A DNA stretch of 64,000 bases from Escherichia phage PSD2001. The notes under the pieces were generated by a model, which saw nothing but the letters and a program-made list of their open reading frames with translations, made no database searches and was not told the DNA's origin. The translations under genes and the position numbers were made by a program. Shown here piece by piece: positions 5,241 to 17,505 of this stretch (position 1 is its first letter; the number at the start of each line of letters is the position of its first letter). The stretch lies in the sequence record OK254198.1. One strand, given 5' to 3'.

Positions 5241-5426
5241 TTAAAGAGTATTCACATAAGCAATTAATTTGTTTTCTTTCTCATCAAACCGATTAGCAAA
5301 TTCTTCCTGATGTTCGGCATCTATCGGGCCATATTCATCATAAAAAGCGTTTGCTTCCGTATGCTCATCCAAAAGCTCATGAATAAGCTCAAACAATTTA
5401 TCTTTTTGTTCTTTACTTAGGCTCAT
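5241..5426 (-). CDS. Hypothetical small acidic protein (tandem paralog 2)
   Basis: 61 aa from internal ATG preceded by SD AAAGGTG. Confidence 0.5.
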   Translation of the reverse strand: MSLSKEQKDKLFELIHELLDEHTEANAFYDEYGPIDAEHQEEFANRFDEKENKLIAYVNTL

Positions 5427-5635
5427 AACCATTGCACCTTTAAACAATATTCATCTACGTGTTGGACACGTTTGTTTTTGTCAATAAAAGTATATTCAAC
5501 ATACTCGCCGATATACCACTTATCTACATTGTGAGGACTTTTTATAGGACACTTGGTTACCCGTGTTTCGGACCAGTGTCGAATAATTGTAGCTTTATTT
5601 TTAGGGTCAAACGGATGTGGGTAATGTGCTTTCAT
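5423..5635 (-). CDS. Hypothetical protein
   Basis: 70 aa ORF, overlaps neighbours by a few nt. Confidence 0.5.
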   Translation of the reverse strand: MKAHYPHPFDPKNKATIIRHWSETRVTKCPIKSPHNVDKWYIGEYVEYTFIDKNKRVQHVDEYCLKVQWL

Positions 5636-6086
5636 AATCCACCACTATCAAATCAATATCAGGAGTAAACATATCAATTAACCGGGAAACCTTATCCCAA
5701 TCACCACCTGCAATACCACATCCAATCCTGGGAATATAAATCACGGGCTTGAACAAAAGTGATTCTGCTTGTCGATTTAATTCTATCATGCAATTTACTA
5801 AAGCGCCATAATCCAGATTTGGACCCGGTTCATACTGTGTATAAAGGTTATAGCACATACCAAATCCAGTTGGCTTATGTTTAAAAACGATAGACATATC
5901 ACCGAGTTTTTCTCGGGAACCGTATTCAGTTGATGTCTTATCCATTTCTAAAATTTTTGGGTAAGCCTTTGCCAGTTGGCCAGCGACGCCTGAACCCATT
6001 GTGTGAAAGCAGTTGCAACCATGTGCAATAATATTGCCTTGAAGAAAGAGGGCGACGATATCGCCCTTAATATAGTTAACAATCAT
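5607..6086 (-). CDS. Macro-domain protein (putative ADP-ribose binding/processing)
   Basis: 159 aa; 'GDIVA...AHGCNCFHTMGSGVAGQLAKAYP' and 'IPRIGCGIAGGDW' match the two glycine-rich macro-domain motifs. Confidence 0.65.
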   Translation of the reverse strand: MIVNYIKGDIVALFLQGNIIAHGCNCFHTMGSGVAGQLAKAYPKILEMDKTSTEYGSREKLGDMSIVFKHKPTGFGMCYNLYTQYEPGPNLDYGALVNCMIELNRQAESLLFKPVIYIPRIGCGIAGGDWDKVSRLIDMFTPDIDLIVVDYESTLPTSV

Positions 6087-6444: not shown

Positions 6445-6987
6445 TTAATCCACCGTTTTTAATAGGCCTCGTGATTTTAAGTAGTTAGCTTTTTCTAGGA
6501 CCTGTGAAGCATACTTATTACCAGCTTTCACATTCCACCCTGCGTTATATGATGATAGTGTTTTCCTTATATCCCCCTTATGAATATTCAACCAGTATGA
6601 AAGCTCAATATAAGCCCAGCGTGCACTGTTCTCTCTCTTGCTTATCATCTTGATTATTTCTTTATCTGTCATTGTCCACCCAACCTGTTTCACGCGTTCG
6701 CGGACGGTTGGAAGATAATTTTGGAATATACCATATGCGTGATGCTTATCTTTATTTAATCCAGTATTAACCCCAGCAGAACTTTCCTGCCAGGTTAAAC
6801 CAGCCATGATATATCCCAAACCATTATGTTGGTGCGGATTTTCTTTGTACTTACCATTTTTCTGGAACTGTTCTCCAAACGCATAAGCATATTGGAGGTT
6901 CTCCATTTGTTCATTACTGAAAGTAGGCTCTACGCTATGGGCAGACATACTAACTGTCAATAGTAAGGTGGCGATTACTTTTTTCAT
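6445..6987 (-). CDS. Secreted lytic transglycosylase-like protein (SLT/lysozyme-like domain)
   Basis: 180 aa; signal peptide 'MKKVIATLLLTVSMSAHS'; 'TWQESSAG...AYGIFQ' matches SLT catalytic E-S ... A-x-G-hh-Q motif. Confidence 0.65.
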   Translation of the reverse strand: MKKVIATLLLTVSMSAHSVEPTFSNEQMENLQYAYAFGEQFQKNGKYKENPHQHNGLGYIMAGLTWQESSAGVNTGLNKDKHHAYGIFQNYLPTVRERVKQVGWTMTDKEIIKMISKRENSARWAYIELSYWLNIHKGDIRKTLSSYNAGWNVKAGNKYASQVLEKANYLKSRGLLKTVD

Positions 6988-6997
6988 GAATTCCCCA

Positions 6998-7456
6998 TTA
7001 GATATAAATCACTTTTGTGCTAATTTTTCCTTCCAGACGATTAGAGTTAACAAACGCCATACGGCAACACATGGTCGGAGACTTCCCAGGAAGAGCTGGG
7101 TTAACTGTCATTCCTAACCATAGGTTCTTGTCTGTGATTTCCAGACGAAGTGGACGATAGTTCACATTCGGGTCAATTTGTGCTTCAACTTCCGGGAGTG
7201 GTTTCATCTCCAGGAATTCAACGATTTCTTTTACATGTGGTGTGATTTTTCCAAACAAATCAAAAACATATTGTTCATCAATTTCACGTTGGATTGCACG
7301 GTCCAACAGGTGTGGACTGTACTTAATGAAGAATGCTTCAAGGCCTGCTTCTTTACAAGCCTTGTTGATAGCATTATTAATTTTGAGGAACTCCGTTTCA
7401 AAAATGCGACGAAGTTTATTGCGGCGAATGTAAACACTTGAATCGATAGTAGTCAT
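6998..7456 (-). CDS. regB: RegB-like endoribonuclease
   Basis: 152 aa from ATG with SD AAGGAG; 'IRRNKLRRIFETEF...KYSPHLLDRAIQREIDEQYVFDLF...LRLEITDKNLWLG' closely parallels T4 RegB as recalled. Confidence 0.85.
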   Translation of the reverse strand: MTTIDSSVYIRRNKLRRIFETEFLKINNAINKACKEAGLEAFFIKYSPHLLDRAIQREIDEQYVFDLFGKITPHVKEIVEFLEMKPLPEVEAQIDPNVNYRPLRLEITDKNLWLGMTVNPALPGKSPTMCCRMAFVNSNRLEGKISTKVIYI

Positions 7457-7461
7457 GATTA

Positions 7462-7512
7462 TCTCCTTTTGTTTGATGGGATAATCATAACTCATTTCAA
7501 TCTGCTTGTACA

Positions 7513-7514
<2 letters not shown>
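7462..7514 (-). promoter_or_regulatory. PeSS-like early promoter (-35 GTGTACA, -10 TATGAT, TATCCCATC arm)
   Basis: Minus-strand read GTGTACAAGCAGATTGAAATGAGTTATGATTATCCCATCAAAC upstream of regB start. Confidence 0.55.
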
Positions 7515-8092
<578 letters not shown>

Positions 8093-10449: not shown

Positions 10450-10752
10450 TTATTTACCTTTAATTGCTTTAGCTGCTTCGATAGCCGCTTGCTGAAGGTC
10501 ATCCATAGACATACCGAACTTAGAAGCAAAGTTATCAATTTTCTTTTCGACAGAATTCAAAGGCTTGGCCTGTTTACCTTCATTAGCGCCAGGGAGAGCT
10601 AGAATACGCTCTTTGTCAATATAAAGGCTTACAAGTTTCTTACGGTCTTTATCTGGTAAATCATGAAATGAATGGGCCTTTTTATTTACAGCGGCTTCTA
10701 ATTTACCTGCACTTACGCGCGCTTCGGTGATAAATTCTTTATACGTTTTCAT
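10450..10752 (-). CDS. Internal protein II-like ([23 protein letters not shown])
   Basis: 100 aa; CTS N-terminus; located between e and denV exactly where T4 carries ipIII/ipII. Confidence 0.75.
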
Positions 10753-11278: not shown

Positions 11279-11734
11279 TTATCCGAAAATTTGAGTCATT
11301 ACCTTGTACATCGATTTGCCCATCACATACTGCCATTGACTCGGTTTAATCAGAGCAAATGCATCGAACTCTGGAACTGTACTACCATCCGGAAAGGTAT
11401 GATAGGCAGAGCATTTACTATGTCTGAACTGCTCATGCTCGACCGGGACCGTGTACAAAAACAGGTGAAGGTTTTTATTATCTGAATAACGGAACTCACC
11501 CAGGTCTTTTAAGAATGCTGGGTCATATTGGGTAAATCCAGTTTCTTCTTCGGTTTCACGAATAGCAGCTTCAATCGGGGATTCACCAGCTTCAACGTGA
11601 CCCTTAGGGATGTCCCATTTGTGCGCAGGCGCACCTGGTTTACGAGAACCGGTCACACGACCCATGAATAACTCTTTATCTTCAGTCATGAAAATAATGC
11701 CAGCAGATAATTCCTTCACTTTCTTACTCATCAT
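11279..11734 (-). CDS. nudE: Nudix hydrolase
   Basis: Nudix box 'GHVEAGESPIEAAIRETEEETG'; adjacent to e as in T4. Confidence 0.85.
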   Translation of the reverse strand: MMSKKVKELSAGIIFMTEDKELFMGRVTGSRKPGAPAHKWDIPKGHVEAGESPIEAAIRETEEETGFTQYDPAFLKDLGEFRYSDNKNLHLFLYTVPVEHEQFRHSKCSAYHTFPDGSTVPEFDAFALIKPSQWQYVMGKSMYKVMTQIFG

Positions 11735-11960
11735 CGCGTTTCCATGATTGGTTAAAAATATCACTCATTAAAAATTCAAGTCTATTTTCCAATGAAGGAC
11801 TTTCACTATCGGATACTTGAATCATATAATCGGAAATAGGTCGGAACATATCCAAGTCGCTTTCCAAATCTTCTTTGATTTTCTCTTCTGATGTTCCGGT
11901 GTCATAGGAATACAGATAAGAATCACATGACTCGGATTTAATATAAATTGCAATACTCAT
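11724..11960 (-). CDS. Hypothetical acidic protein
   Basis: 78 aa ORF. Confidence 0.5.
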   Translation of the reverse strand: MSIAIYIKSESCDSYLYSYDTGTSEEKIKEDLESDLDMFRPISDYMIQVSDSESPSLENRLEFLMSDIFNQSWKRDDE

Positions 11961-12541
11961 TTACGGCATTCCTCAATAAAAGAATTTAATGTATTTTTCT
12001 TAGCGATATCGTCGTATACCTTTTTAACTTTAGAAATACGAAAAGGTACTTCAATAGCCATAGTCCATAAAAATGATGCAATAAGTCCAACAGCAGCAGA
12101 AGAAATGCACGCGCCCATTACAGCCACAGGTGCTTCATTTTTACCTGTCAAGAAAAACAACAGGATTGGTAAAAATAAGATTCCAGCCCACACATAAAAC
12201 CTGGAACAAATTAACTTATCAAATTCATCTTTCCAGGTACGAAATCCATATTTCTTGCTATAAGAAATTAATGGGTCGGGTGTCTGTTCTTTGAGTGGTT
12301 CCGGTTGATACCCATTAACAATATATCCCATTTTATATTCCTTAATTAAAAGCTCTTTCACATGACGATTGCATCGCGACCAATCAACGTTTTCCACCTT
12401 GATTCCTTCATCACCATCGTCAAGGTTCGCCCAATATTTTTTGGTAATCATAAATTCATCTCTTGATACAATTATACCTGCATTTTCTGCCCGACGGATG
12501 AAGTTTACATCAACACCCATACAACCAGGTTCATACAGCAT
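11957..12541 (-). CDS. Hypothetical membrane protein, C-terminal ...LNSFIEECRK tail family
   Basis: 194 aa; two C-proximal TM helices then basic tail shared with 15640..15993 and 15980..16339. Confidence 0.55.
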   Translation of the reverse strand: MLYEPGCMGVDVNFIRRAENAGIIVSRDEFMITKKYWANLDDGDEGIKVENVDWSRCNRHVKELLIKEYKMGYIVNGYQPEPLKEQTPDPLISYSKKYGFRTWKDEFDKLICSRFYVWAGILFLPILLFFLTGKNEAPVAVMGACISSAAVGLIASFLWTMAIEVPFRISKVKKVYDDIAKKNTLNSFIEECRK

Positions 12542-13227
12542 TACCAGCCCTCCATAGGAAATTCCAGATATACTTGAGCATTAACGCGGATTTCATTGGT
12601 GATTTTATTAACGCGGTCAGTTTTACGAGATACGCGACCAAACCAGCGCCAACCATTACCAACCGTTTTTGTTCCAGTATGCCAGGTCTGCCAGTTGAAT
12701 TCACACAACGTGCGGTCAGGAGCTTCTTGAACTAAAAGTTCACCCGCCTTGATTTTTTCCAGAACTTCCTGGTGCCACTGGCGATAGATAAGTTCGCCAT
12801 CAGGAATCTGACTGAATTCTGAAGTTCCCAGAGCAAAATGAGTAGGGCAAACAGAAGCGTTAACCAGACCCAGGATGTGTTCAGAATGGTAACGAGGGTT
12901 ATCATAATCAGGTTGTCCTGCTGTAATAAAATGTTGTCCTGCTGGAATATCTGGACGTGGTACATCATCATGGTGATACCCAGGGATAGCAGGATACCAA
13001 CCAGGCATCAACATATGGACGCGAGAGTCAAATACAACATCACGATTGGTCCAGTCCAGTGGTAATGCAGCAATAAAGCTACGGGTAATTAAACCGCCTT
13101 TATCCCAGGCAAAACTTAAATCACAATTAAAGAACATCGGTTCATTTTTGATTTCGTCATTACTGACATATTGAGCAAATTGACCAACTTCACGCATTTG
13201 ACTATTAAAAGTTTTTGAGCTATTCAT
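12541..13227 (-). CDS. Hypothetical protein, His/Trp-rich (GYHHDD motif)
   Basis: 228 aa from ATG with SD GAGGA; no confident family. Confidence 0.55.
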   Translation of the reverse strand: MNSSKTFNSQMREVGQFAQYVSNDEIKNEPMFFNCDLSFAWDKGGLITRSFIAALPLDWTNRDVVFDSRVHMLMPGWYPAIPGYHHDDVPRPDIPAGQHFITAGQPDYDNPRYHSEHILGLVNASVCPTHFALGTSEFSQIPDGELIYRQWHQEVLEKIKAGELLVQEAPDRTLCEFNWQTWHTGTKTVGNGWRWFGRVSRKTDRVNKITNEIRVNAQVYLEFPMEGW

Positions 13228-13237
13228 GATATTTTCC

Positions 13238-13474
13238 TCAGTATTCTTCATCATATTCAAAGTCTTCATCAAACTCGGGTTCCAGAGAAATTTCTTCTTC
13301 CGGGTGGAATTCACAAGGGAAGTATTCCACTTCACCACAATCGGCGTCATAGGACTGGAAATCAATTTGGATTACGGTTTCGGATACAACAATAACTTCA
13401 GCAACCAAGTCACCTGCAATTTCCATTCCAACTTTAACATCTTTAGCTTTGATAGTATTCATTTTATTCTCCAA
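13238..13474 (-). CDS. Hypothetical highly acidic small protein
   Basis: 78 aa; C-term 'EPEFDEDFEYDEEY'; PeSS promoter directly upstream. Confidence 0.55.
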   Translation of the reverse strand: MENKMNTIKAKDVKVGMEIAGDLVAEVIVVSETVIQIDFQSYDADCGEVEYFPCEFHPEEEISLEPEFDEDFEYDEEY

Positions 13475-13487
13475 TTTGGTAACTCAG

Positions 13488-13538
13488 TATGGAATCATTA
13501 TGCACTGACTCCATACTGATGTACACACTTATTTTGTG
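13488..13538 (-). promoter_or_regulatory. PeSS-like early promoter (-35 GTGTAC, -10 CATAAT, inverted repeat TCAGTATGGA/TCCATACTGA)
   Basis: Same architecture as copy at 21..68. Confidence 0.6.
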
Positions 13539-14488
13539 AAAGGACGAATTAAATGTTGGTTAGCCTTAAAGCGTTTAACATAGTCTTCGCGACCCAGGGT
13601 GTTGTACATATTAACCACTTCCTGGTAATGTTCCCAGGCATACTCGCGGAACCATCCAGAAGTAATGGAGGTACAGACTTTTTCCAGCGCAATATGGAAG
13701 CTCACAGATGGAGAGATATTGAACTCATTAGGAACCTGCGAACGCTCCAGAGCGAGCACACATGCTTCTTCATAAACCCCTGCCAGTTTAATAATCTCAG
13801 GGAGTGCTTCAAATTTTTCACGCGAGGTCATGACTTCTGAATCATCCTTCATATAAAACTTATATGCAGGCTTATCAGCAAGCGCCACAGCCTCGTGGAT
13901 GGAGTCATGGTCAAGGGTGTAGATTGTATCATTAAAGAAAGTTTTCTTGCCCACGTCTAGTTTAGGGTGACTGTATGACAGTGTTTCTGCCTGACGCTGC
14001 AGCATGATTTTCTGCAGTTCATCATTAAGAACAACACCCTTATTGCGAAGATAATTAATATGACTCATGGTCTTCAGGAAGAATGGGTTGTTCTTCAGGT
14101 AACGATGAGACAATTTAATCGCCAGACAAATATCAGGCGTCGCCCAATAGAAACCTGTAAGACGGTCTTTCTGAATATTTGCCTTCGCATATTTGAGCAG
14201 ACGATAACTTGAGGTGAAATCTTCGTCTTGAAGCTCACCAGTAATTTCTCGTACGTTGGTCAGGGCACGGACAATATAAGCTTCAAAATAGGTTTCTTTG
14301 CCATTGTACATACATTTAAAAGCTTGGACATCAGGGTTATCTACAGGAACATGAGCACCGAACATACGTGCTTTAAAGTGGTTCCAAGAACCCTGGTCAG
14401 CGATAAAGTCCCAATCAGAGTTTTCAATTTTCTGACTTTCAATCAGACCAGCGTTATGTAATGCACGAGAACCAATAACTAACATCAT
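13529..14488 (-). CDS. Hypothetical protein, possible nucleotidyltransferase-like N-terminus
   Basis: 319 aa; 'LVIGSRALHNAG...SDWDF' loosely resembles GS...DxD; weak. Confidence 0.55.
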   Translation of the reverse strand: MMLVIGSRALHNAGLIESQKIENSDWDFIADQGSWNHFKARMFGAHVPVDNPDVQAFKCMYNGKETYFEAYIVRALTNVREITGELQDEDFTSSYRLLKYAKANIQKDRLTGFYWATPDICLAIKLSHRYLKNNPFFLKTMSHINYLRNKGVVLNDELQKIMLQRQAETLSYSHPKLDVGKKTFFNDTIYTLDHDSIHEAVALADKPAYKFYMKDDSEVMTSREKFEALPEIIKLAGVYEEACVLALERSQVPNEFNISPSVSFHIALEKVCTSITSGWFREYAWEHYQEVVNMYNTLGREDYVKRFKANQHLIRPFTK

Positions 14489-14502
14489 AATATTTTCCTC
14501 AT

Positions 14503-14548
14503 TAGTTGACGGGATAATGATACTACGTTTCTTTAGACTTGTACACTA
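14503..14548 (-). promoter_or_regulatory. PeSS-like early promoter (-35 GTGTACA, -10 TATCAT, TATCCCGTCAAC arm)
   Basis: Minus-strand read upstream of 13529..14488. Confidence 0.5.
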
Positions 14549-14590
14549 AATTTCTGCACAAAGTCCTCCTATCACATCCTTGTGATAATT

Positions 14591-14824
14591 TTAGCAGCTA
14601 CTCGGATACCAGATTTTACCATCGGCACGAGCAACGAAGGTACGACCAGCTTCTTCACCATAACAAGAGCTGTTCAACCAGTCTTCAAGACGGACTTCGC
14701 CGTCATAATCATCAAGCTCAACACCAAAATCTTGAGCAGAAGCCATATCTTTTACTTTCTTATACAGTGCAGCCAGTTCAAGGGCAGCTTTTTCTAATTC
14801 AGCATGTTCAACAGCAGTAATCAT
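14591..14824 (-). CDS. Acidic small protein, W-x-SS-C tail paralog D
   Basis: 77 aa; '...EDWLNSSCYGEE...YPSSC'. Confidence 0.55.
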   Translation of the reverse strand: MITAVEHAELEKAALELAALYKKVKDMASAQDFGVELDDYDGEVRLEDWLNSSCYGEEAGRTFVARADGKIWYPSSC

Positions 14825-14833
14825 TTTATCACC

Positions 14834-15052
14834 TTAGCAAGACATAGAGGAGTTAAACCAGAAACCTTCACCTTCTGGAATACAATATTCATCACGAACC
14901 CATTCATAATCGTCATATTCCGGACTGGAAGCTGGAATATATTCTTCACCCCCGGCGTGAAAGTGTTCGCCGGTTTCATCCGCCGCAGTCAGACCTTCAC
15001 AGATTAGTGCACGGATTTGTTTTTCAATTTCTTTAACAGTTTTAGCAGTCAT
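14834..15052 (-). CDS. Acidic small protein, W-x-SS-C tail paralog C
   Basis: 72 aa; ends 'GFWFNSSMSC'. Confidence 0.55.
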   Translation of the reverse strand: MTAKTVKEIEKQIRALICEGLTAADETGEHFHAGGEEYIPASSPEYDDYEWVRDEYCIPEGEGFWFNSSMSC

Positions 15053-15061
15053 TTTATTTCC

Positions 15062-15343
15062 TTAGCATTCAGAAGAGGAAGACACCCAACCGCCTTTTTC
15101 CAGGCTGGTAGTGTAATCATGTTGGTTTACAATAGCGTACTGGGCTTCGCCGTATTCTTCCCAATGGGCAAGGTCAGCTTTCAGGGCGCCAGGAGAATAA
15201 TAGTCACCGCCCATACCGCGAGCAGGGTATATATTAAAATGAGTCTCATATTTGTCTGCAATTTCCTCGGCACGACGAATAGCTTTATGGATGTCATTTA
15301 CTGCGTTAGCCAGTTCTTTATTTTTACGGTAATCATTCATCAT
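15062..15343 (-). CDS. Acidic small protein, W-x-SS-C tail paralog B
   Basis: 93 aa; 'EEIADKYETHF...GGWVSSSSEC'. Confidence 0.55.
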   Translation of the reverse strand: MMNDYRKNKELANAVNDIHKAIRRAEEIADKYETHFNIYPARGMGGDYYSPGALKADLAHWEEYGEAQYAIVNQHDYTTSLEKGGWVSSSSEC

Positions 15344-15352
15344 AACGTTTCC

Positions 15353-15643
15353 TTAGCACATTGCCGAAGAGGAGACCCAAGCACCAACTGTAACGACACC
15401 GTTTTCAACTTCACCGCCGTTGTTTTCAATTTCATCTTTAAACCACTGGGAGCATTCATAACCGACAGGATAATATGTACGGCCTGAACCATAATCACCG
15501 GTACCAAATTGGATACCATATTCATCTGCGATTTCTTCACAGTGTTTTTCAATTTCAGAGGTCTTATTTAGAAGAGAATAGATAGCTTTTTCTGCAGATT
15601 TCTCATCATAATACTTGGGGATAGCAATTTCAATTTTATTCAT
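15353..15643 (-). CDS. Acidic small protein, W-x-SS-C tail paralog A
   Basis: 96 aa; 'EEIADEYGIQF...GAWVSSSAMC'. Confidence 0.55.
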   Translation of the reverse strand: MNKIEIAIPKYYDEKSAEKAIYSLLNKTSEIEKHCEEIADEYGIQFGTGDYGSGRTYYPVGYECSQWFKDEIENNGGEVENGVVTVGAWVSSSAMC

Positions 15644-15993
15644 GATTTACATTCCTTAATAAAGGTTTCAAGGTCATTACGTTTTGTTTTGTTCAGGAAC
15701 TTATTATACTCAGCCATTGCTGAAGCATATCTCTTCCGACTAGGAGCATTCACGGCGTTTGTGTGACAGATATCATACACAACAGGGATAAAATAAGACA
15801 CAACAGCCGGAGCGATTATCATAAAGAAACCCATCTCAATAGGCATCACTCCTTCGATTGCAGCCATAACCGTGGTCATTACCAGACCAACCAAACCACC
15901 AAGCATGGCAGTGACAATCCCGAATAATAAATTGGCACCAATATCATATTCAGCCAATTGATAAACATGCGAGGCAAGACTAGGCCGTTCCAT
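15640..15993 (-). CDS. Small two-TM membrane protein, ...LETFIKECKS tail
   Basis: 117 aa from ATG with SD AAGGAGG; two TM helices. Confidence 0.55.
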   Translation of the reverse strand: MERPSLASHVYQLAEYDIGANLLFGIVTAMLGGLVGLVMTTVMAAIEGVMPIEMGFFMIIAPAVVSYFIPVVYDICHTNAVNAPSRKRYASAMAEYNKFLNKTKRNDLETFIKECKS

Positions 15994-16339
15994 TACGAAC
16001 CTCCTTAATAAATTCTTCGGCACATTTAATTTTGTGCTCTTCTTGTAGGGAAACACATTTTTGTTCCCACTCTTTAACTCGCCCACGATATCCTTTATTC
16101 ATATGATTTTGATGCCACACGTTTATCAATATCATACCCAGGACTGTAATAAAAGGTGCTGCAATTATTAGTGACCAGGCGACTCCGACACTAATGATAT
16201 CCATATCCCCACAAAGCACCATCATTATAACCCCAACGATGCACATGGACAAAGCTCCAAATGGAGGCATCAAGTCTTTATCAATCTTGTTCGCGTATAC
16301 AAATTTTTCTGGTTTACTTGGCAGATATAACGTTCGCAT
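15980..16339 (-). CDS. Small two-TM membrane protein, ...EEFIKEVRNG tail
   Basis: 119 aa from internal ATG with SD AAGGGG; two TM helices. Confidence 0.55.
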   Translation of the reverse strand: MRTLYLPSKPEKFVYANKIDKDLMPPFGALSMCIVGVIMMVLCGDMDIISVGVAWSLIIAAPFITVLGMILINVWHQNHMNKGYRGRVKEWEQKCVSLQEEHKIKCAEEFIKEVRNGTA

Positions 16340-16868
16340 TTTGAACCCCTTTAGCATATTCACGACATTCAGCAATAAAACGATTAAGCTTTCGTTTTTG
16401 TTTATGACTTTCTAATGTGTACTCAGCCGTCAAATCAAGAAGCTCAGCTTTATCATAATTTTTAATATCAGTATAAGCTGGGCGGCGGTCAACCATTCCA
16501 AATACATCACCATTCTCTAGCGTCACATAACATACTAAATGGTAATCATCATCTGCCGCATTAAGGAGTACGCAATCATTGCTCTCGTTTAAAGCATACA
16601 CTGAATAACGTAGTCCAGCGAATTCTGCTTGTTGGATACCCAGATTTACGTCAATAATTTCCAAGGCATCTGCGAAAGAAAGGTCTTCAGCTAAAGCAAA
16701 AATAAAAGGCAATTTAGTAGTATCGCCGCGACTTGTTGTTCTTCTTAAGAAATCATTGGAATAACCCAAGTCACCACGGATTCTATAAAGAACTGTATTA
16801 GTTTCAGTAGCAAGACCACTACCGCCAAACCAGTCTACATTTGATATAAGGTCGGTATATAAGCTCAT
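16314..16868 (-). CDS. Hypothetical protein with ...LNRFIAECREY C-terminal motif
   Basis: 184 aa from ATG with SD GGAGAGGAG. Confidence 0.55.
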   Translation of the reverse strand: MSLYTDLISNVDWFGGSGLATETNTVLYRIRGDLGYSNDFLRRTTSRGDTTKLPFIFALAEDLSFADALEIIDVNLGIQQAEFAGLRYSVYALNESNDCVLLNAADDDYHLVCYVTLENGDVFGMVDRRPAYTDIKNYDKAELLDLTAEYTLESHKQKRKLNRFIAECREYAKGVQNANVISAK

Positions 16869-16911
16869 AATATTCTCCTCTCCCAATTAGGGGGCAAAGC
16901 CCCCTTTTATC

Positions 16912-17505
16912 TTACTTAAGTGAATTGATGTATTCTTCAATGTCAGCGGACGTGGTATCCACACCAACCTGTGGGCCTTTGAAGGTTTCAACACGCATCA
17001 GAGTGTCTTCAATATCAATCTTAGTCAATGCAGCGATTTCAACAACATCATCTGCGGTCGCAATACCCAGAGCAGATACTTTACGGGTTTCTCGGATGTA
17101 TTCCAGTTTAACAGCTAGTTCCTGACGAGAGTCATCTAGCTCTTTAACTTTCAATTTAATTTCATTACGCATTTCAACATAATCATCTGCCTTCTTACGA
17201 AGTTGTTTAGCAGTGCGACGATACAGGAGACCCAGTTTAGCATGGACCTGGACATCTGCACCATCAGCAATCAGTTTGCGGATTTCACGCTCTTTTGAAG
17301 CGGCGAGTTGGTCTTTTTCATTCGCTAACTCGCGGATGCGTTTTTCTTCATTAACAGACTTAACGTGGGCAGTCTGGAGCTCAGTAATCTTGTCAATCAG
17401 GGTAGAAGCCGCTTGAGTATATTGGTCTTCAATAGACAGGTTTTTTGTCATTGCAGTACCCAGTTTGGAGCGGATGAATTCAACAAGTTTCTTTAAAGTA
17501 TTCAT
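16912..17505 (-). CDS. Hypothetical coiled-coil protein
   Basis: 197 aa, heptad-rich charged sequence; family not established. Confidence 0.55.

Follow-up and report, generated by a model that had tools for sequence, protein, structure and literature searches.

A portable C-terminal tail motif on membrane and soluble proteins encoded downstream of gene e.6 in T4-type phages

Background

The bacterial membrane-repair protein PspA is typically partnered by small transmembrane (TM) proteins of the same operon (PMC11237479), and PspC is a two-TM protein whose C-terminal cytoplasmic domain binds PspA (PMC11237479, PMC5596341). A broad survey of Psp systems (PMC11237479) does not mention phage- or virus-encoded homologues, and no published T4- or phage-encoded PspA-like protein was found in the literature searched. 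Here we analyse a 64,000-nucleotide (nt) stretch of Escherichia phage PSD2001 (record OK254198.1; this whole stretch is called the window below), in which the orthologues of four T4 genes, e.2, e.3, e.4 and e.5, end in a common tail motif and follow e.6, whose product is probably a divergent relative of PspA/Vipp1.

The genes themselves are known T4 open reading frames (ORFs) that are annotated as hypothetical. Searching the literature by gene name gave no function for e.2-e.6, the supplementary tables of a CRISPRi-ART screen alone mentioning them, and we found no description of the shared tag, of its protein-level conservation throughout the Straboviridae, of its strict association with e.6 or of the likeness of e.6 to PspA. 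Boundary-mediated shuffling in the hyperplastic regions of T4-type phages has been described for the PeSL promoter/stem-loop cassettes (PMC2839356, PMC4122927).

A shared tail motif downstream of e.6

In every sampled genus of the Straboviridae the motif is a portable tag on a fast-diversifying set of proteins encoded downstream of e.6. At 13 loci from 13 genera, anchored on e.6, we counted the strict pattern [FYW][IV]xxC[RK] close to the C-terminus of ORFs of 60 amino acids (aa) or more, in six frames: it occurs 0 times in the 54 kb upstream of this gene and 36 times (35 on the coding strand) in the 74 kb downstream. In 12 of the 13 loci the tag is on the gene that begins 0-63 nt beyond e.6, and in the remaining one, from Aeromonas phage CC2, this gene carries F-V-x-Y-C without the basic residue. 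Directly downstream of e.6, between one and five proteins per genus, either membrane or soluble, are marked in this way. Besides the two ORFs of KP179 given below, loci from other genera yielded tagged proteins that sequence searches had left unconnected: HX01 has one of 101 aa with two TM helices and IME523 a soluble one of 92 aa; Serratia phage X20 has three strict-motif members and one variant, Aeromonas phage PS49 (Karamvirus) five members, and Citrobacter phage NM4.3 (Moonvirus) three strict members and one e.4-type variant. In Providencia phage PSTRCR_127 the tag is on five genes out of a run of six, in one case (SYIKQC) with the Cys as the last residue, and Slopekvirus-like and Pseudotevenvirus phages have a single tagged protein of 316-326 aa (...KFIHSCKK...). 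Small soluble tagged ORFs are present in KP179, IME523, PS49, NM4.3 and PSTRCR_127; soluble tagged proteins range from 92 to 326 aa, and tagged membrane proteins have 2-4 TM helices. The original prediction had treated the motif as the trait of a family of small two-TM proteins, which is right for e.2-e.4 but too narrow, as the motif is also found on soluble proteins and in at least 13 genera.

The tag also offers a search handle for fast-evolving members that are otherwise unrecognisable. In Klebsiella phage KP179, a tagged 98-aa two-TM ORF (5357-5653, ...AWIRSCRK) and a tagged 102-aa soluble ORF (6663-6971, ...LFIAKCRAK) lie in gaps of the RefSeq annotation, and both are probably unannotated genes. 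Searches of large databases with e.5 and e.2 returned close relatives only, among 1.84 billion cluster representatives an exhaustive phmmer search with e.3 recovered no more than three true relatives, and scans of IMG/VR gained no new loci.

The phage of the window is SP18-like and T4-type: positions 11900-16900 share 95% DNA identity with Shigella phage SP18 (Gaprivervirus, Straboviridae), and the JS98-like coliphages include many further relatives. All four tail-bearing ORFs stand at the coordinates first given, all on the minus strand. The annotation of SP18, tblastn searches of T4 and matches to PHROG profiles make them orthologues of T4 e.2, e.3, e.4 and e.5 (NP_049738-NP_049741), the PHROGs being 2203/35263 (e.2), 2330 (e.3), 2604 (e.4) and 2607/8788 (e.5). 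The genes concerned are the following:

11957..12541, minus strand: e.2 orthologue, 194 aa, with a soluble N-terminal domain, two TM helices and the basic tail LNSFIEECRK (PHROG 2203, E=4e-67; tblastn to T4 e.2 and SP18 e.2; hydropathy)
15640..15993, minus strand: e.3 orthologue, 117 aa, a two-TM hairpin with a 43-aa basic tail ending LETFIKECKS (PHROG 2330, E=1e-45; hydropathy)
15980..16339, minus strand: e.4 orthologue, 119 aa, a two-TM hairpin with a 45-aa tail ending EEFIKEVRNGTA (PHROG 2604, E=7e-45; tblastn to T4/RB32 e.4)
16314..16868, minus strand: e.5 orthologue, 184 aa, soluble (PHROG 8788, E=7e-111; weak match to PHROG 2607, the T4 e.5 family; family alignments)
16912..17505, minus strand: e.6 orthologue, 197 aa, a coiled coil and the conserved upstream neighbour (profile, Pfam/NCBIfam and hhalign matches to PspA/Vipp1)

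The gene order here is e.6-e.5-e.4-e.3-[eight inserted genes]-e.2-(78-aa ORF)-nudE-e. Apart from the block inserted between e.3 and e.2, which are contiguous in T4 as are all of e.2-e.5, the position between e.6 and nudE/e, the shared strand and the overlapping junctions are as in T4. The same gene order, overlapping stop/start junctions and tail motif are thus kept, with NFITECRK (e.2 remnant), FVIDCRK (e.3), FVKESRC (e.4) and FVKECREY (e.5) as the T4 tails, whereas two of the proteins differ: e.2 is intact here and has a 30-aa N-terminal extension, and e.5 has diverged so far that BLAST aligns the tail alone. In T4, e.2 is annotated as 102 aa, and past two stop codons its frame goes on to a second TM helix, which is conserved, and then to ...NLNNFITECRKLK as the tail (T4 record 67481-67960); because frame and conserved tail continue beyond the two stops, T4 e.2 appears to be a recently disrupted gene.

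The window proteins end in LNSFIEECRK* (e.2), LETFIKECKS* (e.3), EEFIKEVRNGTA* (e.4) and LNRFIAECREYAKGVQNANVISAK* (e.5), where asterisks mark stop codons. These are the ends originally given for e.2, e.3 and e.4; e.5 had been taken to stop at ...CREY, and in fact 13 residues follow LNRFIAECREY and overlap the start of e.4. The motif and the Shine-Dalgarno (SD) sequence of the next gene lie as follows:

11963..11989, minus strand: e.2 tail motif L-N-S-F-I-E-E-C-R, with the next gene's SD GAGGAA in the E-E codons
15646..15672, minus strand: e.3 tail motif L-E-T-F-I-K-E-C-K, with SD AAGGAA in the K-E codons
15995..16021, minus strand: e.4 tail motif A-E-E-F-I-K-E-V-R, a variant with V for C, with SD AAGGAGG in the K-E-V codons
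16362..16388, minus strand: e.5 tail motif L-N-R-F-I-A-E-C-R, with no SD in the motif codons

In all six frames of the window, FI.EC has three occurrences, in the tails of e.2, e.3 and e.5, and L..FI.E[CV][RK] is confined to the same three places. The strict form Φ-x-x-[FY]-[IV]-x-x-C-[RK], within ~35 residues of the C-terminus, is present in e.2, e.3 and e.5, and in e.4 with V at +4. In T4 (138 kb), the C-terminal motif is seen in e.3, e.4 and e.5 only, plus the e.2 remnant. Between the motif and the C-terminus there are 0-30 residues (1-13 among the aligned Tevenvirinae members), and the consensus is Φ(-3)-x-x-[F/Y](0)-[I/V](+1)-x-x-C(+4)-[R/K](+5), from which the e.4 lineage departs at +4 (V, I, S or M). 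When 23 diverse tails were aligned on the F, the frequencies were as follows:

Position -3: hydrophobic in 87% of the tails
Position 0: F or W in 100%
Position +1: I or V in 100%
Position +4: C in 74% (otherwise V, I, S or M)
Position +5: R or K in 100%

In an alpha-helix the hydrophobic positions (-3, 0, +1 and +4) would all fall on the same side.

Conservation of the motif as protein

The tail motif is conserved as protein and not as RNA. From 15 phages of six genera we collected 32 distinct 27-nt motif sequences, in which the Cys codon is TGC (14) or TGT (13), the Arg codon CGT (15), AGA (5), CGC (4), AGG (3) or CGA (2), and Leu at -3 is encoded by five different codons, with F and I almost always TTT and ATT. 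The SD does not keep its place relative to the motif either: it overlaps codons 6-7 of the motif (K/E-E) in e.2, e.3 and e.4 of the window and codons 9-10 (C-R-K/N) in T4 e.2, T4 e.3 and HX01 e.2, it follows the motif by 4-8 codons in e.5 genes, and in the 102-aa ORF of KP179 it comes after the stop codon. In the e.5 of the window, whose motif codons are TTT ATT GCT GAA TGT CGT, it is AAAGGGG, four codons after the motif and within the tail extension. It is because synonymous codons vary and the SD moves within the motif or leaves it that we place the constraint at the protein level. In an alignment of 46 e.5 sequences, whose other clades are 16-20% identical to the protein of the window, four of the 7 invariant columns fall in the tail (F164, C168, R169 and K173), and an alignment of eight e.5 sequences leaves M1, N94, F164, C168 and R169 invariant.

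Could the similarity nevertheless come from the initiation region of the next gene, i.e., a U-rich stretch plus SD, or from a junction cassette hitch-hiking along, with no selection on the peptide? TTT ATT followed by AAG/GAG GAA does read as a U-rich enhancer and SD in three of the four window genes, F and I are nearly invariant in codon use, and a 16-nt cassette at two junctions (described below) marks a precise gene indel. However, C, R and L vary freely among their synonymous codons, the SD is shifted against the motif or lies wholly outside it (e.5 genes, the 102-aa ORF of KP179, a 234-aa ORF of IME523), and the motif is kept across genera with unrelated flanking nucleotides. This explanation, alone among the rivals considered here, is largely excluded, and we give it hardly any credence.

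The original prediction had placed the next gene's SD in the tail codons in each case and had concluded that protein and RNA jointly constrain the motif. The overlap is there in e.2, e.3 and e.4, and not in e.5, where the SD lies four codons beyond; a dual constraint can be upheld for the middle K/E-E positions in this phage but not for the conserved Φ, F, I/V, C and R. Nor is conservation restricted to the nucleotides, an outcome that had been expected to undo the proposal, given the many synonymous codons and the persistence of the motif where the SD has moved or lies outside. At the e.2 and e.3 junctions the next gene starts at an ATGA stop/start overlap, and the SD overlap reflects tight translational coupling of the operon; it is not what conserves the motif.

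Membrane topology

Kyte-Doolittle hydropathy finds two hydrophobic helices at residues ~113-162 of e.2 (in its C-terminal half), ~19-74 of e.3 and ~26-74 of e.4, and no hydrophobic helix in e.5, in agreement with the original description of three ORFs with two hydrophobic helices and a basic tail (11957..12541, 15640..15993 and 15980..16339) and a soluble fourth one (16314..16868). The loops between the helices of e.2, e.3 and e.4 have 4-9 residues with 0-1 K/R, and the tails 32-45 residues with 8-9 K/R. Applying the positive-inside rule to these loop and tail charges, we infer that the three proteins are N-in/C-in hairpins with the tail motif in the cytoplasm.

Such a hairpin with a charged C-terminus is the layout of class II holins, and the genes lie near the endolysin gene e. 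The proteins might on these grounds be independent membrane effectors of superinfection exclusion (Imm-like) or of holin/antiholin-like lysis timing, the basic tail being merely the usual charged cytoplasmic end, as the original prediction had guessed. Yet e.2-e.5 have no match in Pfam, NCBIfam or PADLOC, and none to Imm, exclusion, defence, holin or lysis families in PHROG; soluble proteins bear the same tag; a holin (T) and an antiholin (RI) are already encoded at other sites in T4-type genomes; and a knockdown phenotype is absent ("Not Fit", see below). The guess thus finds no backing, and we consider a role of this kind very improbable.

Automated product names of these genes in some GenBank records are mutually contradictory and without support here (T4 clone OL964745; phage EAWsc9), e.g., "sulfurtransferase" for e.3/e.4 and "holin", "MotA-ExbB", "VirB3" and "ubiquitinyl hydrolase" for e.2-e.5; the labels "holin", "VirB3", "MotA-ExbB" and "sulfurtransferase" look like pipeline noise. 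Prompted by the "sulfurtransferase" labels on T4 e.3/e.4 (one record), C-R-x-G-x-R was considered as a rhodanese active-site loop and rejected: the proteins are too small, the layout is wrong and the label is not repeated elsewhere. The Pfam family PF26896 is carried by database relatives of e.2, and PF26876 by T4-type e.5.

Family links and recombination at gene junctions

Weak cross-hits connect the membrane families: in PHROG, e.3 matches the e.2 family (8e-4), e.4 the e.3 family (2e-3) and T4 e.3 the e.4 family (7e-3). With hhalign, the C-terminal part of e.2 (e.2C) and e.3 align over 21 tail columns (P=4e-6) and e.3 and e.4 over 37 columns (P=2.7e-5), both over the tails, and reversed-sequence controls reach 1.6e-4 through TM composition alone. 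The signal between the membrane families sits in the tails, not in the TM helices. A metagenomic protein, P0078, combines an e.3-like membrane part with an e.4-like tail, and this intermediate together with the PHROG cross-hits supports a reading of e.2C, e.3 and e.4 as distant paralogues. The original view of these proteins as a true family sharing a C-terminal motif is borne out.

Two direct repeats flank e.4:

16337..16352, minus strand: 16-nt junction cassette AAAGGGGTTCAAAATG, comprising SD and start codon of e.4
15991..16006, minus strand: 16-nt junction cassette AAGGAGGTTCGTAATG, comprising SD and start codon of e.3 and encoding K-E-V-R-N of the e.4 tail

The pattern AA[AG]G[AG]GGTTC[AG][AT]AATG has only these two copies in the window, at the e.5/e.4 and e.4/e.3 junctions. 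JS98-type (Dhakavirus) phages are devoid of e.4, and in them e.5 is joined to e.3 through a single cassette copy, e.5 ending in the chimeric tail ...AKEVQNGTA (JS98 7001-7883 compared with window 15980-16352). Since these phages keep one copy at the join, phages with and without e.4 differ by a precise indel between direct repeats, and the junctions act as break points at which genes are gained and lost. In the cassettes themselves neither a promoter-like element nor a hairpin was found.

These observations also allow the tail to be read as a relic of paralogy, in which e.2, e.3, e.4 and the extra copies arose by tandem duplication, the terminal helix was kept for each protein's own folding or self-association without a common partner, and e.5 and the other soluble members acquired the tail by junction recombination. 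The genes do stand in tandem, the families are weakly similar along the whole tail with P0078 as an intermediate, recombination falls exactly at the tail/ribosome-binding-site junction in the JS98 e.4 indel, and members are individually dispensable. Against this, the same nine-residue pattern recurs on proteins that otherwise share nothing (soluble ones of 92-326 aa, membrane ones with 2-4 TM helices), and the few invariant residues of e.5 include the F, C and R of its tail, a pattern for which packing specific to one fold hardly accounts. We regard such an origin without a common partner as unlikely, if worth keeping in mind.

A weak likeness of e.6 to PspA/Vipp1

The conserved neighbour e.6, found in 1110 phage records (some with the GenBank label "host specificity protein"), had been missed in the original prediction and points to a function other than exclusion or lysis. 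When a profile of eight e.6 sequences was compared with the PDB, 7 of the top nine matches were Vipp1/PspA, the best one (E=4.4e-4) pairing residues 1-158 with 1-160, i.e., from the N-terminal amphipathic helix onwards. PspA_IM30 is the top Pfam match, below threshold, of the Slopekvirus-like (E=1.9e-4) and CfP1 (9.5e-3) homologues of e.6, and TIGR02977 phageshock_pspA is the top NCBIfam match, likewise below threshold, of the Providencia homologue (MGIFKN...; E=9.5e-4). An hhalign comparison of e.6 with Synechocystis Vipp1 and an E. coli PspA sequence entered by hand gave P=2.4e-4, with reversed controls at 0.008 and 0.035, and on the NM4.3 homologue the depositors themselves had left the HHsearch note "shock protein". 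Searches of single proteins (e.5, e.6 and e.2) against the PDB found nothing. Taken together, these collinear matches make e.6 likely to be a divergent, membrane-binding relative of PspA/Vipp1 (IM30; ESCRT-III-type).

The N-terminal helix of e.6, I-x-x-F-[IV]-x-x-K-Φ, was compared with the tails and rejected as the same motif, only a generic Φ-x-x-F-Φ being common to both. The sole e.6 match in a bacterial genome is on a 178-kb phage-like contig, NZ_JBHSCL010000010.1 (Flagellimonas marina assembly), whose e.6 and e.5-like proteins are nearly identical to those of a Klebsiella Slopekvirus-like phage; this contig is probably phage contamination and not a bacterial locus.

A possible Psp-like module

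We put forward, as a hypothesis, a mechanism in which the tail would be a docking helix that brings all tagged proteins to a single partner on the cytoplasmic side of the inner membrane. For this role e.6 would be the foremost candidate, and the cluster would then work as a phage-encoded Psp module, i.e., a PspA-like effector with small membrane partners, built, as we hypothesise, from unrelated proteins with a portable tag in common. This reading, in which the tail serves all of them as a docking helix that may bind e.6 and form a Psp-like module, is the one we tentatively favour, at slightly less than an even chance. A wider version is that T4-like phages carry a Psp-type membrane-maintenance system of their own, with e.6 as a PspA/ESCRT-III-like scaffold, the tag as a portable e.6-docking helix, and changing membrane adaptors and soluble proteins that recruit or regulate e.6 at the inner membrane, possibly for the sake of membrane potential during infection or lysis inhibition, or for blunting abortive-infection defences that attack the membrane; we find this version rather doubtful.

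Several observations weigh against this picture. The matches of e.6 score 16-23 bits and are all sub-threshold (at best 21.6 against 33.9 for PF04012, and 18.9 against 243 for TIGR02977), a coiled coil belongs to a class prone to spurious matches, and the e.6 of the window has no direct PspA match, its assignment passing through homologues that are 32-33% identical to it. The suggested link between e.6 and the tail comes only from conserved gene neighbourhood. No similarity of e.2, e.3 and e.4 to PspB, PspC or LiaI was found (Pfam E<=0.1; NCBIfam E<=0.5), and AlphaFold2 models of e.5 are unusable as a guide to the tail helix (pLDDT 36 with 28 aligned sequences, 39 with 46). Members are individually dispensable, e.4 being missing in JS98-type phages and T4 e.2 broken by two stops, and knockdown of T4 e.2-e.6 in a laboratory host brought no loss of fitness in the 2025 CRISPRi-ART screen (scored "Not Fit", with function "Unknown"; PMC11879866, supplementary file 15), although this screen also scored the endolysin gene e "Not Fit". 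An obligatory four-protein complex was dropped as a candidate, because e.4 is lost and e.2 is disrupted in nature.

Instead of a phage protein, the tail could dock on a host target (the host's own Psp proteins, a protease or an adaptor, or a protein of the membrane or of cell division), which would make the family a set of effectors with a common address, serving host takeover or anti-defence. This would suit a hyperplastic early region in which copy number and sequence turn over fast while the tag stays fixed, as well as genes that are dispensable in laboratory hosts, which is typical of host-range or counter-defence genes; but it leaves the invariable adjacency to e.6 unexplained, and we could match the tail to no known bacterial short linear motif. 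We think a host target improbable. Mimicry of the C-terminal peptide of FtsZ was dropped, since the basic residues of that peptide are probably spaced differently from those of the tail motif.

The descriptive findings, which are firm, give e.2-e.6 a testable organising principle: one short mutable tag (F, C, R) and one conserved candidate partner, e.6. If e.6 is indeed a PspA/Vipp1 relative with tagged adaptors, these phages would possess a virus-encoded "phage shock" membrane-repair machinery, of which no case was found in the literature searched, and this would touch on two matters, the means by which lytic phages maintain an energised inner membrane in the host and their arms race with membrane-disrupting defences.

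Other features of the locus

Two further elements lie among the tagged genes:

12541..15643, minus strand: ~3.1-kb block of eight motif-free genes between e.3 and e.2, absent in T4, where e.3 and e.2 are contiguous
16889..16905, no strand assigned: GC-rich hairpin between e.6 and e.5, with no T-run after it on the coding strand

Within the block, four small soluble paralogues in tandem (14591-14824, 14834-15052, 15062-15343 and 15353-15643, minus strand) all match the C-terminal part of PHROG 899, and each ends in W/F-x-SS(S)-x-x-C with the Cys last (YPSSC, FNSSMSC, WVSSSSEC, WVSSSAMC); the array is also present in HX01, IME523, X20, PS49 and NM4.3. The block further holds a DUF7277/DUF7275 protein and a homologue of RB69 ORF132c (13529-14488 and 12541-13365, minus strand), which are conserved across many T4-type phages and neither of which is tagged.

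On the other side of e.2, a 78-aa acidic protein (MSIAIYIKSE...; 11724-11960, minus strand) is translationally coupled to this gene via an ATGA overlap. As the same ORF also lies 3' of an e.2-type gene in HX01, KP179 and X20, it is a conserved partner of e.2. Residues 31-75 of the N-terminal domain of e.2 (W-x-N-L-D-D-G-D-E-G-I...V-D-W-x-x-C) match separately annotated ORFs in other T4-type phages and in the T4 record L13089 (msp6/msp7).

Comparison with known systems

A short terminal tag on variable proteins of the same hyperplastic region is already familiar from the capsid-targeting sequence of the T4 internal proteins (N-terminal MKTYQEFIAE), which directs proteins into the capsid and is cleaved by the prohead protease. 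The tag described here differs in that it is C-terminal, carries C-R and is found on membrane proteins. A reading of the tail I-x-E as a site of the gp21 prohead protease or as a capsid-targeting sequence was rejected, since other residues can stand in place of the E (FVIDCR, FIKGCR, FIKYCR) and a membrane protein would not be taken up into the capsid. The window does contain an internal-protein-like ORF (10450-10752, minus strand) that starts with the T4 capsid-targeting consensus and resembles the tail (EFI.E); the resemblance between the two sequences is probably coincidental.

Like the PeSL cassettes, the 16-nt cassette flanking e.4 is a short conserved boundary sequence for gene gain and loss, but it consists only of an SD and a start codon inside an operon and is partly coding. 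Class II holins, too, are small N-in/C-in two-TM proteins with a charged cytoplasmic C-terminus, and the likeness is one of hydropathy and charge only; there is no sequence similarity, and e.2-e.5 belong to the early-region operon of e.6 and not to a lysis cassette, with nudE and other genes separating them from e.

The bacterial Psp systems (PspA with PspB/PspC; LiaH with LiaI) differ from this locus in that soluble proteins are also tagged here, a PspF-type regulator is absent and the match between e.6 and PspA is sub-threshold; nor is the tail motif known from E. coli PspC. The likeness would lie in the arrangement: e.6, a coiled coil that looks like PspA, opens an operon of small inner-membrane proteins, and e.3/e.4 resemble PspC as predicted N-in/C-in hairpins with a cytoplasmic C-terminal predicted helix. 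Both the operon position and the layout of e.2-e.4 would fit small inner-membrane partners of a PspA, but the assignment of e.6 to PspA stays below threshold.

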